A stretch of DNA of 6,554 nucleotides from a virus (taxonomy: Duplodnaviria; Heunggongvirae; Uroviricota; Caudoviricetes). Position numbers and translations under genes: made by a program. This document shows, one piece after another, positions 2,146 through 6,330 of the stretch. The stretch lies in IMG/VR virus record IMGVR_UViG_2695420685_000018; one strand, given 5' to 3'. Each line of letters opens with the position of its first letter. Within the stretch, counting starts at the first letter, position 1. The notes under the pieces are model-generated. The model was given only the letters and a program-made list of their open reading frames with translations. It did no database searches and had not been told where the DNA came from.

Positions 2146-2360
2146 AGAACAACCCATTATCAAATACAAGGCCCGACATGAAAACGCCAGAAAAAGGCAT
2201 TTTCGGACACTTTCATGTCGGACATTTATGAATGCAATATTAAAAAAAACAAAAAGTTATATTCGAGAAGTACCGACACGATTTTCCCTGAAAAATTTTC
2301 ATAAATAGTGAAAAACCGCGAGGTCGCCGCCCCGTAACGATCTGGATCACCGGAAAGGAC
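2146..2360 (-). other. cos site region (cosQ-like flank, cosN, cosB-like repeats) of a lambda-type packaging system
   Basis: Seen in sequence: the minus strand reads ...GGTGATCCAGATCGTTACG|GGGCGGCGACCT|CGCGGTTTTTCACTATTTATGAAAATTTTTCAGGG..., nearly identical to the lambda genome end/start junction as I recall it (…GGTGATCCGACAGGTTACG + GGGCGGCGACCTCGCGGGTTTTCGCTATTTATGAAAATTTTCCGG…). Between cosN and the nu1 start are repeated CCGACA/TGTCGG motifs, including an 11-bp inverted pair (plus ccgacatgaaa 2173-2183 and tttcatgtcgg 2211-2221), plausible Nu1-binding R elements, plus an A-tract at about 2241-2256. Confidence 0.8.
2321..2332 (-). other. cosN 12-nt cohesive-end sequence
   Basis: Plus strand aggtcgccgccc at 2321-2332; its complement reads 5'-GGGCGGCGACCT-3', identical to the lambda left cohesive end (established knowledge). 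Confidence 0.85.
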
Positions 2361-2488
2361 CCGCCAACGACTTTCGCGTGCAGGCATTAAAAATTTTGCA
2401 GTTCCATGCCTAGTTGAAACCTCGATTTCTATAACATCCAATTTTGTAAATTTAGATATAGCTCAACTTTTCCCAATGTTTTCAAGTG

Positions 2489-2494
2489 TATAAA
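2489..2494 (+). promoter_or_regulatory. Candidate sigma70 -10 element (TATAAA) for the plus-strand 355-aa gene; no convincing -35
   Basis: Seen in sequence: TATAAA about 60 nt upstream of the ATG at 2556 in an AT-rich tract. The gene is antisense to the phage late operon and so needs its own promoter somewhere in 2400-2555. Weak call. Confidence 0.25.
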
Positions 2495-2544
2495 AACAAT
2501 TGGCGTTACGCCATAACACTATACTTAGGATAAGTAAAGATTTT

Positions 2545-2555: not shown

Positions 2556-3623
2556 ATGAGTCAACATCAATATTATCCACAGCTGAAATGGAAGCCTGCT
2601 GAATATGAATCTCTGATGCTTTTAGATCAAACTACGCTCTCTGGTTTTACTCCGATCATTACCATTCCAGACATAGACTGGGATTATGAAAACGAATGCT
2701 ACAAGAAGAGTTTGAGTTCTTACTTATCTGACTTCGGTATTAACCTTGCGGCATCCTGGAAAGCCAATCGTCCTGTTTTGCTGGATGTTAAATATTTAGA
2801 TAAACATGGTTCGAGCCGCCATCATCCTCTAGATATGTGTATCCAAGATGCTAGAGTAAATGGTAAGGAAATTATCCCTGTTGTTTCTCCCGCATATTCA
2901 ACAAACTATATACATGCTGTTCAACGCAACTTAATCAATGGGCTCGCTATATCTATCACCCCCCAGACATGGCACCAATTCACAAGTCTGGTTAACCACT
3001 TAAATATTCATCCTAGTTTAATTGATGTAATCATTGATTTTGGAGATATTCAAAACGCAACTGATAGTTTAAAACAACAAGCATTAAGCATGGTCAACAC
3101 ATTATCAGGCCAAGCTCCGTGGAGAAACTTGATTTTATCTTCAACCGCATACCCGGCATCACAGGCAGGGATACCGCAACATCAAGTTCATCATATTCCG
3201 CGCCATGAATACGATCTTTGGATGTACGTAGTACAGAATTTTAGCAATGGAAGAACGCCAAGTTTTAGTGATTATCCCACCGCTAGCTCTACCATTACGA
3301 GCGTAGACCCACGCTTCATGTCTCAGTATGTCTCAGTGAGATATTCGAACGATACCTCATGGATCTTTGTAAAAGGTACCGCAGTTAAAGGAAATGGATG
3401 GGGCCAAACTAAAAACTTATGTACTACCCTTGTTAGTTCGCCAGAGTATCAAGTCTTTGGCTCCAAATTTAGTTGGGGGGATGATTACATTTACCAAAGA
3501 TCATTAGGCGCTAACAAATCTGGCGGCTCTAAAGAATGGCGTAAAGTTGCACATACGCACCATATTACGTTAGTCGTGAGACAGCTTTATTGGTTGGCGC
3601 AGACTCAGCCTGCCAAGCCTTAA
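2556..3623 (+). CDS. Hypothetical protein, 355 aa, no confident family assignment; first gene of the cos-proximal AT-rich insert
   Basis: ORF track 2556..3623 (+). ATG preceded by a strong SD, long ORF in a low-GC segment, no predicted transmembrane stretch or signal peptide by eye. Unverified impression only: resembles proteins annotated as 'beta family' or 'sce7725-like'. Requires a profile search. Confidence 0.8.
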   Translation: MSQHQYYPQLKWKPAEYESLMLLDQTTLSGFTPIITIPDIDWDYENECYKKSLSSYLSDFGINLAASWKANRPVLLDVKYLDKHGSSRHHPLDMCIQDARVNGKEIIPVVSPAYSTNYIHAVQRNLINGLAISITPQTWHQFTSLVNHLNIHPSLIDVIIDFGDIQNATDSLKQQALSMVNTLSGQAPWRNLILSSTAYPASQAGIPQHQVHHIPRHEYDLWMYVVQNFSNGRTPSFSDYPTASSTITSVDPRFMSQYVSVRYSNDTSWIFVKGTAVKGNGWGQTKNLCTTLVSSPEYQVFGSKFSWGDDYIYQRSLGANKSGGSKEWRKVAHTHHITLVVRQLYWLAQTQPAKP

Positions 3624-4185
3624 CTTTCCAGCCTACGCGTTTCTTTAAGGCTGTTCTGACTTCAGGCCTGAGATTCGCTATTGGAATATTTTCCGCAATA
3701 ATATTCCATAACTCAAATCGGGGCTTGCTTTTGATTCCTTTGGAATAGCCCCATCGTTCAAGTACGTCGATACATTCATCTTTCCAAAGCAATTGAGCGA
3801 GCATCAATGTGTCATGGTTTCGATTAAGCTTTTCTCCACGCATGTGCTTTATAAGAATGGCGCCTTTTGGCCCAACAGAAACCGTTTTAACGCCCCACCA
3901 ACCTGGGATTAACTTTAATGCTCCCTCAAGGTGTTTCTCAGCTACGACAAGAGTAACCTTGTCCATTACAGAAGAATAATGCTTGATTTGAAGAGGCAAA
4001 CGCTCCAAAGAGTCATATTCACTTTTGAGCTCGTACCCGTGTATAACACCATTTATTACAGCAATGTCTGCTCTACTGGCGCCAAGGGATATGGAAAATT
4101 CATCGACCACAAGGCAGTCTGGATCTAAATGCGATTCTTTCAAAAGCTTATGATGCACCGCGAACCTAACATCTTGATCTTTCAT
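3565..4185 (-). CDS. Hypothetical protein, 206 aa, with an N-terminal PD-(D/E)xK-like nuclease motif (putative nuclease); second gene of the insert
   Basis: ORF track 3565..4185 (-). ATG at 4185-4183 preceded by AAGGAG. Residues ...VVDEF(28-30)...RADIAV(38-43)...GYELKS(50-55) fit the hydrophobic-strand-D / hydrophobic-strand-E-x-K arrangement of PD-(D/E)xK nucleases (inference from motif spacing). Unverified impression: resembles 'sce7726-like' or MmcB-like proteins. Confidence 0.75.
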   Translation of the reverse strand: MKDQDVRFAVHHKLLKESHLDPDCLVVDEFSISLGASRADIAVINGVIHGYELKSEYDSLERLPLQIKHYSSVMDKVTLVVAEKHLEGALKLIPGWWGVKTVSVGPKGAILIKHMRGEKLNRNHDTLMLAQLLWKDECIDVLERWGYSKGIKSKPRFELWNIIAENIPIANLRPEVRTALKKRVGWKVKAWQAESAPTNKAVSRLT

Positions 4186-4190
4186 GACTT

Positions 4191-4196
4191 CTCCTT
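4191..4196 (-). promoter_or_regulatory. Shine-Dalgarno AAGGAG for the 206-aa gene
   Basis: Seen in sequence: plus ctcctt at 4191-4196 is AAGGAG on the minus strand, 5 nt upstream of the ATG at 4185. Confidence 0.7.
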
Positions 4197-4213
4197 ACTC
4201 CCTCCGTTATTGA

Positions 4214-4219
4214 ATTATA
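4214..4219 (-). promoter_or_regulatory. Candidate sigma70 -10 hexamer (TATAAT, perfect consensus) for the 206-aa gene
   Basis: Seen in sequence: plus attata at 4214-4219 is TATAAT on the minus strand, about 29 nt upstream of the ATG. The -35 position is occupied by a tandem direct repeat rather than a TTGACA-like hexamer. Confidence 0.45.
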
Positions 4220-4222
4220 GCG

Positions 4223-4242
4223 CACTGCATTTTACTGCATTT
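4223..4242. repeat. Tandem 10-bp direct repeat (cactgcattt / tactgcattt) overlapping the -35 region of the 206-aa gene promoter; candidate operator
   Basis: Seen in sequence: 4223-4232 cactgcattt and 4233-4242 tactgcattt, 9 of 10 identical, head to tail, immediately upstream of the TATAAT element on the minus strand. Confidence 0.6.
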
Positions 4243-4535
4243 GAGAGATTTGACCACTTCAATCACAAAATGCTTATCTGCAGCAACAAGATTCATAGCC
4301 ATACGACTATGGTGATTACCTTTTGTCTGGAAAACTGACCATTCCACGAAGATCAGATAGGTCTATAGAATCTTGGTTTGTCATAGCGTTCGTCTTACTT
4401 TGAGATGAACCTTTGCTGCATAGGAGATCAGCCCGTCAAGGCTCACCAGCACTAACTGACTACTCAAAGGCTCATTCCAAAGGGTTTGGTTCGACGTGGT
4501 TGAGTGCGCTGCGGTGCGCGGTGAAATACCTGTAC

Positions 4536-4566
4536 AAAAATGCCCCGCATCTGCGAGGCATTTTCC
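4536..4566 (-). terminator. Intrinsic terminator-like hairpin downstream of Rz, with some bidirectional potential
   Basis: Seen in sequence: plus aaaaaTGCCCCGCATCTGCGAGGCAtttt. On the minus-strand RNA this is a 7-bp GC-rich stem (GCCUCGC/GCGGGGC, one G-U pair), 4-nt loop, followed by AUUUUU. It lies about 40 nt past the Rz stop. On the plus strand the stem carries a C-A mismatch and a shorter U tract. Confidence 0.55.
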
Positions 4567-4601: not shown

Positions 4602-5060
4602 TTATTTTAAGCACTGCGTCCTGATGTACTCCTGCAGGTAGTTGACCTGAGCGGTTATCTTGTCGATTCCACTTCGGAGACGGTAATAATTGAGTTCAGC
4701 ATCTGCTGTAAGTCTTGGGCTTTCTCCATCGCCCATGCTGCTGGCTCCGGTCGTTGACTTTGCACAGGTGGCGGCGACTTGCAGGCGCTTACGCCCAGCA
4801 GAAACATCAGCACGAAGACTTTCGATAGTCGCGTTAGCATCAGCAAGCTCCTTTGTGTATCTGGCGTCGAGTTCTGCTACATCACGCTGACGCATCTGCA
4901 TGTCAGTAATTACCACGTTCGCCAGCTTCAGTTCTCTGGCATTTTTGTCGCGCTGGGCTTTGTAGGTAATGGCGTTATCGCGGTAATGATTAACAGCCCA
5001 TGACAGGCAGACGATGGTGCAGATAACCAGAGTATAAATAATCGCTGCGACTCTGCTCAC
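4602..5060 (-). CDS. Rz: Rz, inner-membrane spanin subunit (lambda Rz-like)
   Basis: ORF track 4602..5075 (-). From the GTG at 5060 the product [48 protein letters not shown]... is near-identical to lambda Rz ([48 protein letters not shown]...) from memory. The GTG start overlaps the endolysin TGA stop (GTGA). The upstream in-frame codon at 5075 is TTG and has no lambda counterpart. Confidence 0.88.
4655..4840 (-). CDS. Rz1: Rz1, outer-membrane lipoprotein spanin subunit, embedded in the +1 frame of Rz
   Basis: ORF track 4655..4846 (-). From the ATG at 4840: [36 protein letters not shown]..., i.e. a signal peptide with lipobox V-S-A-C followed by a Pro-rich segment, entirely inside Rz in another frame. 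This is the defining Rz1 architecture (established knowledge). Confidence 0.85.
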
Positions 5061-5590
5061 TGATCTATCCCCCAACAGGCTAATGCGCTTTCCTGGTCAC
5101 GACGAATAACCTGTCCATAGCAGTTATTTGAACGTATGCGGCAATCGCGCCCACCATCTTTTATCCACCAGCGAATCGCCTCGCATGCGCCCTTACGATC
5201 ACCGGCATTCAGCCGCTTATAAAACGTCGACGGGAAACACTTACCGGGGCCAATGTTATAGGGACAGAATGACGCTATACCCGCTTTCTGTGGTTCGGTC
5301 AGTGGTACTTTAATATTGCGCTCCACCCATGCCAGCGCCTTATCACGTTCAATAGCGTTAACCTGGTCGCATTTTTCCTTCGACAGCTTCATTCCCGGTA
5401 TGACGGGCTTACCATCCACCATTGTGGCACCACGACAGATGGTCCATATACCGGAACCATCGCGGTATGCCGTAGTGTGGTTACCCTCTTTTTCATCCAG
5501 AAACTGGTCAAGTATTTGAGGAGCAGACGCGCCTGCAGCAATCAGCGCCAGAACAGCAGCTGACAGGCCGTATTTGATTTTTGCGCTCAT
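5057..5590 (-). CDS. R: SAR endolysin (T4-lysozyme-type muramidase, phage 21 R / DLP12 RrrD-like), 177 aa
   Basis: ORF track 5057..5590 (-). N-terminal Gly/Ala-rich weakly hydrophobic segment [16 protein letters not shown] (signal-arrest-release type) followed by the catalytic spacing E35-x8-D44-x5-T50 ([16 protein letters not shown]), as in P21 R and T4 lysozyme E11/D20/T26 (established knowledge). Confidence 0.9.
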
Positions 5591-5645: not shown

Positions 5646-5960
5646 CTAACAACCCGTAATCGAGTTATCAGAACTGTTAATTTTTATGGTATACCGCGCC
5701 TCTGAACAGGGGCGCGTTTCTGGCAACAGCTCGTCCCCTTCACATAACCCGGCAGCAACATCCATGAAGACCTGTCTGATGCTCCTTCTGGCTGCTGCCT
5801 CATAAAACTCCAGCGCGGCACCTTCAACACGGTCCAGCGAGATGTCCAGGTCAAAAATTTCACCGTCAAAGCGTTTTTTGTCCCGTAACGCTAAAGTTAC
5901 CGTAACTTTATTCTCAAAATTGCGGATCCCTTTCACAATCAGTTCATAGTTTTGAGTCAT
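5646..5960 (-). CDS. Small hydrophilic protein of unknown function, 104 aa, YdfR-like (DUF1327-type) gene between holin and endolysin
   Basis: ORF track 5646..5960 (-). ATG 4 nt after the holin stop with a GGGGAGAG SD-like tract. No transmembrane segment. Position and size match YdfR of the E. coli K-12 Qin prophage, which sits between essQ and rrrQ (recalled, not searched). Confidence 0.7.
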   Translation of the reverse strand: MTQNYELIVKGIRNFENKVTVTLALRDKKRFDGEIFDLDISLDRVEGAALEFYEAAARRSIRQVFMDVAAGLCEGDELLPETRPCSEARYTIKINSSDNSITGC

Positions 5961-5964
5961 TGAA

Positions 5965-6180
5965 TTACTCTCCCCGTGCAGCCTTACGACGGTCCTCTCT
6001 GATTTTGAAATACAGGTTAGTCAGATATGTCAGCAGCCCAAACAGCAGACTCCCCAGCACGCCTATTGCCGCCCACTGAGACGGGGAAACCCTGTCCAGC
6101 AACTGCAGGAACCAGTAGCCCGTTCCCACCGCTGACGTGGTGTATGACACACCTGTTGTGATTTTTTCCATCTGGTACAT
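5965..6180 (-). CDS. S: Class II holin / pinholin (phage 21 S21-like), 71 aa, with dual-start motif
   Basis: ORF track 5965..6258 (-), trimmed to the ATG at 6180: [71 protein letters not shown]. This parallels S21 (…[65 protein letters not shown]) from memory. Two transmembrane segments; Met1 and Met4 give a dual start; GGAG lies upstream of the ATG. The 26-codon upstream extension in the ORF track begins with a non-ATG codon and runs through the terminator hairpin. Confidence 0.9.
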
Positions 6181-6212
6181 ACCCCGTCTCCCGTTATCCG
6201 GAAGCTGACAAC

Positions 6213-6246
6213 AATAAAAAAAGCCACCAGTTAAGTACTGATGGCT
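6213..6246 (-). terminator. Intrinsic terminator (tR'-like position) between the upstream ORF and the holin
   Basis: Seen in sequence: minus-strand RNA 5'-AGCCAUCAG-UACUUAA-CUGGUGGCU-UUUUUUAUUG, a 9-bp stem (one G-U pair), 7-nt loop and U tract, ending about 35 nt upstream of the holin ATG. Confidence 0.55.
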
Positions 6247-6330
6247 CTGATAACTCATGCAGGCATCTCAGACGACCCACTGACACTACCGGTGAGTTTA
6301 ACGATACCTTCCATTTGACTGGCTCACTTT

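Follow-up and report, generated by a model that had tools for sequence, protein, structure and literature searches.

Read on the minus strand, the 6,554-nucleotide stretch of DNA analyzed here (the window) corresponds to the late region of a lambdoid prophage, in which a convergent pair of genes lies between Rz and cos. The genes and landmarks of this region are the following:

5965-6258, minus-strand reading: P21-type holin
5646-5960, minus-strand reading: DUF1327
5057-5590, minus-strand reading: lysozyme
4602-5075, minus-strand reading: Rz
4537-4564, no strand assigned: hairpin after Rz with A/T runs on its flanks (inverted repeat, 13-nt arms, 92% complementary)
3565-4185, minus strand: P4 cII-like/sce7726-family gene, 206 aa, PD-(D/E)xK fold
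2556-3623, plus strand: Beta_protein gene, 355 aa, convergent with the cII-like gene (Pfam PF14350, 8.2e-56)
2319-2334, minus strand: lambda-type cosN, GGGCGGCGACCT (called a "terminator-like" hairpin by the scan)
1597-2169, minus-strand reading: Nu1

The homology with the Rz-rha region of P22 and lambdoid phages ends at 4381, approximately 24 codons into rha. Positions 4381-4453 (minus strand) hold this 5′ remnant of a P22-type rha gene, with a stop at the breakpoint, and the 110 nt from 4381 to 4270 match neither P22 nor the cassettes of other genera. The hairpin that follows Rz is common to the window and P22 and is presumably an insulating terminator upstream of the cassette promoter described below. 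Prophage morons are units of promoter, gene and terminator located between late genes, for example, bor and lom of lambda. The insertion between conserved phage genes and the breakpoint with respect to related phages at 4381 mark the cassette in the window as a moron that has taken the place of rha between Rz and cos. Elsewhere in the window, a 27-nt imperfect inverted repeat (2168-2226) adjoins the start of Nu1; an Rfam scan of the whole window at E-values up to 1 produced no match.

The cII-like/Beta cassette and its distribution

The cII-like protein belongs to the sce7726 family (NCBIfam, 2.3e-54; PF26915), is identified by PADLOC as "cll", and has a fold of the DNA-binding type with a SAP-like C-terminal part. 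For the Beta protein, PADLOC reports PD-Lambda-2_C as the best match along with "beta". The gop-beta-cII locus of P4 is an anti-phage system (Ghisotti et al., 1990; Rousset et al., 2022, PMC9122126). As in P4, the cII homolog of the window, which shows 27% identity to P4 cII, is encoded convergently with the 355-aa Beta protein (PF14350). Unlike in P4, gop is missing in the window and in the related loci, where a tblastn search with P4 Gop gave no match in the window or in any fetched locus, and Beta shares only about 22% identity with P4 beta. The two-gene unit consisting of Beta and the cII-like gene without gop (2556-4185 in the window and four further loci) occurs in at least seven genera, where it resides in prophages, a restriction-enzyme island or chromosomal sites.

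The cassette spans approximately 1.9 kb, and its lineages, ten of which, from different genera, were compared, were gathered from genomes, viral contigs and metagenomes; the arrangement of the convergent pair is identical at all loci inspected. About 2% of complete Escherichia coli genomes carry it (127 genomes and 129 places among the 5,426 searched), and the other hosts are Klebsiella, Cronobacter, Edwardsiella, Pectobacterium, Providencia and Proteus. The settings include the lysis region of a prophage in E. coli, the tail region of a prophage in Proteus, a restriction-enzyme island in Providencia and a site beside an MFS transporter gene in Cronobacter. The difference of the flanks between hosts indicates that the promoter travels with the genes.

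The two genes overlap tail to tail at 3565-3623, by 59 nt in E. coli, where the cII-like protein has 206 aa, versus just 11 nt in the other lineages, where it has 190 aa. Transcription converging on this overlap could make the two genes interfere with each other. At the other end of the cassette, the Beta promoter is immediately preceded by cos. The Beta promoter region (approximately 2443-2495, plus strand) contains a conserved block, TTAGAT(A/T)TAGCTCAA ... TTTTCA..GTATAAAA, with a 6-nt quasi-repeat (TTAGAT/TTAGCT in most lineages) and without a clear -35 element. No motif common to the cII-like and Beta promoters is evident. Terminal inverted repeats of the cassette were considered and rejected given that there is just an 8-nt TTTTGT(A/G)A resemblance in E. 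coli, which is not kept in Klebsiella.

The conserved block upstream of the cII-like gene

The region between the outer edge of the cassette and the start of the cII-like gene contains the following features, to which a second repeat of the same kind within the Beta gene is added:

4257-4270, minus strand: upstream block TTTTGTGATTGAAG, retained in 7 of 10 lineages, at the outer edge of the cassette
4251-4256, minus strand: -35 element TGGTCA, from the promoter scan
4233-4242, minus strand: repeat unit 1, AAATGCAGTA, comprising the 3′ part of the spacer and the first two bases of the -10 element
4229-4234, minus strand: TAAAAT at the junction of the repeat units, proposed principal -10 element
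4223-4232, minus strand: repeat unit 2, AAATGCAGTG, comprising the last four bases of the -10 element and the discriminator
4221-4223, minus strand: predicted transcription start, placed 6-8 nt downstream of the -10 element ending at 4229
4214-4219, minus strand: consensus TATAAT, candidate secondary -10 element or initially transcribed -10-like element
4191-4196, minus strand: Shine-Dalgarno sequence AAGGAG
3318-3337, plus strand: second perfect tandem 10-mer, two copies of ATGTCTCAGT, inside the Beta coding sequence

The minus strand reads, in order, ctc, the two repeat units, cgc and TATAAT, with 28 nt between TATAAT and the ATG (4185-4183), so that the 10-bp tandem repeat and the hexamer are present with exactly the sequences and coordinates given by the sequence-only reading. 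That reading also held that no -35 element is present. For the TATAAT hexamer, this is correct: there is no -35 element at 15-19 nt from it, and the hexamer located 17 nt upstream, AAATGC, matches TTGACA at none of the six positions. It is not correct for the region, given that TGGTCA-16-TAAAAT (4256-4229) overlaps the repeat.

The 29-nt core of the block, AAATGCAGTAAAATGCAGTGCGCTATAAT, is identical between the window and each of four other lineages at 26-28 of the 29 positions, whereas the four-fold degenerate sites of the adjacent gene, which are near saturation, show 39-51% identity in the same four comparisons (binomial p from 1e-5 to 4e-10). The retention of the core despite near-saturated neutral sites indicates that the block is subject to purifying selection rather than preserved by chance. 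The similarity between lineages starts at about 4270, or at about 4257 in the three most divergent ones (Pectobacterium, Providencia and Proteus), and continues through the region that contains the repeat; the upstream block at 4257-4270 is possibly an UP-like region. All 36 matches of the block in viral contigs are located upstream of cII-like genes, and in E. coli, the block and the cassette coincide in all 129 places (127 genomes). The earlier proposal that this is a cis-regulatory region of the downstream gene is thus borne out by strong purifying selection across lineages, and we are confident that the block is the promoter region of the cII-like gene. A small ORF that crosses the promoter (4207-4347, 46 aa) is not a gene: it has no family match, and the upstream sequence is not conserved between lineages.

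A consensus scan identifies TGGTCA-16-TAAAAT as the sole promoter-like site on the minus strand of the intergenic region and places an equivalent promoter at the same position in three orthologous loci, those of Klebsiella, Pectobacterium and Edwardsiella. The site combines a -10 hexamer that has A at position 2 and T at position 6 (TAAAAT) with a -35 element that matches at least 4 of 6 consensus bases at a distance of 16-18 bp (TGGTCA at 16 nt), as expected of a sigma-70 promoter. Across the ten lineages, the -35 element takes the form T(G/A)G(T/C)CA, i.e., the invariant bases (T4256, G4254, C4252 and A4251) are exactly those that match TTGACA, and both mismatching positions vary. In the -10 element, T4234, A4233, A4231, A4230 and T4229 are invariant in all ten lineages, and the third position alone varies (A/G/C); in -10 elements, the third position is the least important whereas the last T is critical. 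The spacer is fixed at 16 nt without indels in the ten lineages, with five central positions varying freely. Estimated with a rough matrix of approximate literature frequencies, the weight-matrix score of this promoter stays at about 8.8 bits throughout the ten lineages. The invariant bases of the ten lineages, T.G.CA-16-TA.AAT, are those of a normal sigma-70 promoter and do not support the view of the repeat as standing in place of a -35 element. With the repeat junction as a -10 element that has its own -35 element, neither an unusual architecture nor a special regulator is required.

We therefore consider it reasonably probable that the site is an ordinary sigma-70 promoter of the mobile cassette, with the -10 element at the repeat junction, and rate at much the same level the assignment of the principal promoter to the upstream hexamers. 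Under this proposal, the promoter would reside within 4270-4213 (minus strand) of the cassette, and RNA polymerase would use primarily TGGTCA (4256-4251) and TAAAAT (4234-4229), separated by the 16-nt spacer. With transcription starting near 4221-4223, the leader would measure about 37 nt, lack structure and carry a strong Shine-Dalgarno sequence. The late transcript would be terminated upstream, at 4537-4564, and hence this promoter presumably provides for expression from the prophage, which would be constitutive in the lysogen. Conservation supports the promoter itself, and the hairpin may insulate it from the late transcript. No RNA structure is conserved in the leader (z = +2.24 compared with shuffled sequences, 0 compensatory pairs), which is less structured than its own shuffles. 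The lack of structure and of covariation implies that the constraint acts on the DNA.

The TATAAT hexamer, located 15 bp downstream of this promoter, is kept in 7 of 10 lineages; it is replaced by TATAAC in Pectobacterium, with the loss of the critical last T, and by GATAAT in Providencia, and is absent at this position in Proteus. It has no conserved -35 partner: the best weight-matrix score drops from 9.1 to -0.6 bits among the lineages, with a different partner each time. Several points speak in favor of this hexamer: it is a perfect consensus, most lineages (7 of 10) retain it although neutral sites are saturated, and it lies at a good distance from the ATG. Most likely, as far as sequence comparison can tell, TATAAT is a weaker second -10 element in a tandem promoter, and in E. 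coli it may make a substantial contribution or even dominate.

Origin of the repeat and alternative explanations

Two exact tandem repeats 9 nt or longer, with a period of 9-12, occur in the window, compared with 0.055 expected per dinucleotide shuffle of the window (P(>=2) = 0.0015), suggesting that the repeat in the promoter is more than a random coincidence. The 9-mer of the repeat taken singly, with at most one mismatch allowed, is not enriched in the window (4 matches compared with 2.35 expected). A tandem repeat per se is no indication of regulation. The second repeat is part of the Beta coding sequence, where the relatives carry ATGTCTCA(A/G)T ATGTTGC(A/G)GT; in E. coli, two adjacent substitutions (TG to CT, changing Ala to Ser) turned unit 2 into an exact copy of unit 1. 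Both this repeat and that in the promoter were perfected in the E. coli lineage, and the perfection of such quasi-repeats looks like templated (misalignment) correction.

In the promoter, unit 1 varies among lineages at positions 1, 2, 5, 6 and 8 (4242, 4241, 4238, 4237 and 4235, respectively), and unit 2 at positions 1, 5, 7, 8 and 10. No position of the core is less conserved than position 7 of unit 2 (A4226), where one of the ten lineages has the base of the window and all others have T or G, which implies that the perfect repeat is derived in E. coli. The identity between the units is 9/10 in E. coli and 6-8/10 in the other lineages. What was described as a tandem repeat would accordingly be the 3′ half of the spacer, the -10 element and the discriminator of a conserved promoter, i.e., an old imperfect quasi-repeat that was perfected in the E. 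coli lineage at the least constrained position of the core. Variation of the copy number of the 10-mer (phase variation) was considered and rejected because there are exactly two units in all E. coli-type loci.

The sequence-only reading took TATAAT to be a -10 element without a -35 element and the direct repeats to be the site of an activator (which would be of the class II type) or a repressor. The perfect hexamer 28 nt from the ATG with no partner at 15-19 nt fits this model, as do the conservation of AAAT..AG in unit 1 and of GC.GTGCG in unit 2 beyond the needs of core hexamers, the parallel G to A changes in both units in Providencia and Proteus (4238 and 4228), which keep the AAATAC/AAATAC periodicity, and the encoded protein, with its DNA-binding type fold and SAP-like C-terminal part. 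However, it is TA.AAT and T.G.CA that are invariant, whereas TATAAT is degraded in Pectobacterium and missing in Proteus; the units are only 6-8/10 similar outside E. coli, and the base that perfects the repeat is the least conserved in the core. Among 5,426 E. coli genomes, a search for further copies of the 44-nt block turned up none outside the cassette (near-exact matches of at least about 20 nt), and viral contigs contain no copy off the cassette either; the absence of copies away from the cassette argues against a regulon. Promoters of other cII-like genes do not characteristically contain tandem repeats, which occur in 3 of 70 compared with 4.4% in shuffled sequences. Thus, the part of the proposal that concerns a cis-regulatory region stands, but the units are not constrained in parallel and the block has no second copy, and we regard a dedicated activator or repressor site of this kind as unlikely.

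The sequence, period and orientation of the repeat were also compared by eye with known consensus sites, which is weak evidence, and did not fit those of PhoB, OmpR, CpxR, ArcA, PhoP, TorR, PmrA, LexA, CRP, FNR, Fur, MarA/SoxS, Lrp, IHF or DnaA; the misfit of PhoB, OmpR, CpxR, ArcA, PhoP, TorR, LexA, CRP and MarA counts against the activator or repressor model. A CRP half-site, TGTGA (4267-4263), was considered and rejected, with a center at about -37.5 and a poor second half-site, and the patterns of sigma-54, sigma-32, sigma-E and sigma-28 do not fit on inspection.

Several conserved bases (AAAT at 4242-4239, A4236, G4235, C4227, T4224, G4221 and GTGCG) are not explained by a bare core promoter, which leaves room for a repressor-type operator overlapping the promoter. 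P4 cII has historically been called regulatory, and combined with the DNA-binding type fold of the cII-like protein, this makes autoregulation conceivable. Specifically, an operator of two direct repeats of about 10 bp could be composed of AAAT..AG (unit 1) and GC.GTGCG..TATAA (past the -10 element) and be bound by the cII-like protein or Beta, although we assign this possibility a low probability. If autoregulation were true, the repeat would be a cognate operator borne by the cassette and not a site of a host regulator.

A sister clade of cII-like genes (51-60% amino acid identity) has unrelated upstream DNA without a tandem repeat. In at least four loci of this clade, a distinct promoter that is likewise plain and conserved, composed of an A-tract, nTGCTA, 17 nt and TAAAGT, is located 60-100 nt upstream of the gene, and the leader of approximately 55 nt contains a conserved motif, (G/A)TTTAAAGT(C/T).

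Another possibility is that the upstream promoter fires and that sigma-70 region 2 is then engaged anew by TATAAT, at about +3 to +10 of the transcript, with a promoter-proximal pause that would tune the output. It is well established that sigma-dependent pauses occur at -10-like elements of the initially transcribed region, as at lambda pR′ and many E. coli promoters. The geometry is suitable, with the -10 element ending at 4229 and TATAAT at 4219-4214, and the element is kept as DNA without RNA structure. The argument is purely inferential, however: TATAAT is lost in Proteus and weakened in Pectobacterium, and there is no antiterminator or other evident use for a pause at the cassette, so that this explanation, too, appears improbable.

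That the repeat and TATAAT are chance features or mutational debris without function is hardly credible given the strong purifying selection on the whole block and its invariable location in front of the same gene, even though the second perfect tandem 10-mer of the window lies in a coding sequence and neither repeat is perfect outside the E. coli lineage, which makes the perfection of the repeat, as such, look like a mutational by-product.

Comparison with known promoters and implications

Among the known systems, the preferred reading, an ordinary sigma-70 promoter with the -10 element at the repeat junction, is closest to moron promoters. The cassette occupies the Rz-cos slot that in P22 is taken by rha, is preceded by a presumed hairpin terminator, has its own -35 and -10 elements and moves between unrelated contexts. 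It differs from typical morons in that it consists of two convergent genes, each with an outer promoter, rather than one gene, and carries a defense-type payload. The cassette promoter adds a further example to a well-known class of elements (moron or cassette promoters) rather than representing a new architecture. The promoter of cII in P4 is similar in that it has a consensus TATAAT about 30 nt before the ATG and a weak -35 element, but it contains no tandem repeat and its sequence is unrelated to that of the cassette promoter. A literature search turned up no publication about promoters of sce7726 genes.

The resemblance to a Pho box, or sites of the PhoB/OmpR family in general, lies in the tandem direct repeats spaced by about one helical turn beside a good -10 element and in the plus-strand CTGCAT(T), which faintly recalls CTGTCAT. 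In contrast to a Pho box, the period is 10 rather than 11, the orientation is opposite, and the proximal unit lacks CTG in other lineages. Furthermore, the units are not equally conserved, as would be expected of equivalent recognition sites; the block is not found upstream of other genes in the E. coli genomes or viral contigs; and a usable, conserved -35/-10 pair that overlaps the repeat already accounts for the site. Similarly, if the upstream promoter is used, a -10-like hexamer is present in the non-template strand within the first ~10 transcribed bases, as in the sigma-70 pause elements of lambda pR′ and lacUV5, but unlike in these systems, no Q-type antiterminator is associated with the cassette.

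Taken together, the sequence-only reading saw the sequence correctly but, with fair probability, put the -10 element on the wrong hexamer. There is no sign of a new regulatory principle here, and the case calls for caution in that a perfect TATAAT combined with a striking repeat does not necessarily amount to a functional architecture. For the cassette family, a promoter is now assigned to the widespread mobile cII-like/Beta cassette, a relative of P4 gop-beta-cII, and the approximately 60 bp to be kept for native expression of the cassette are identified.
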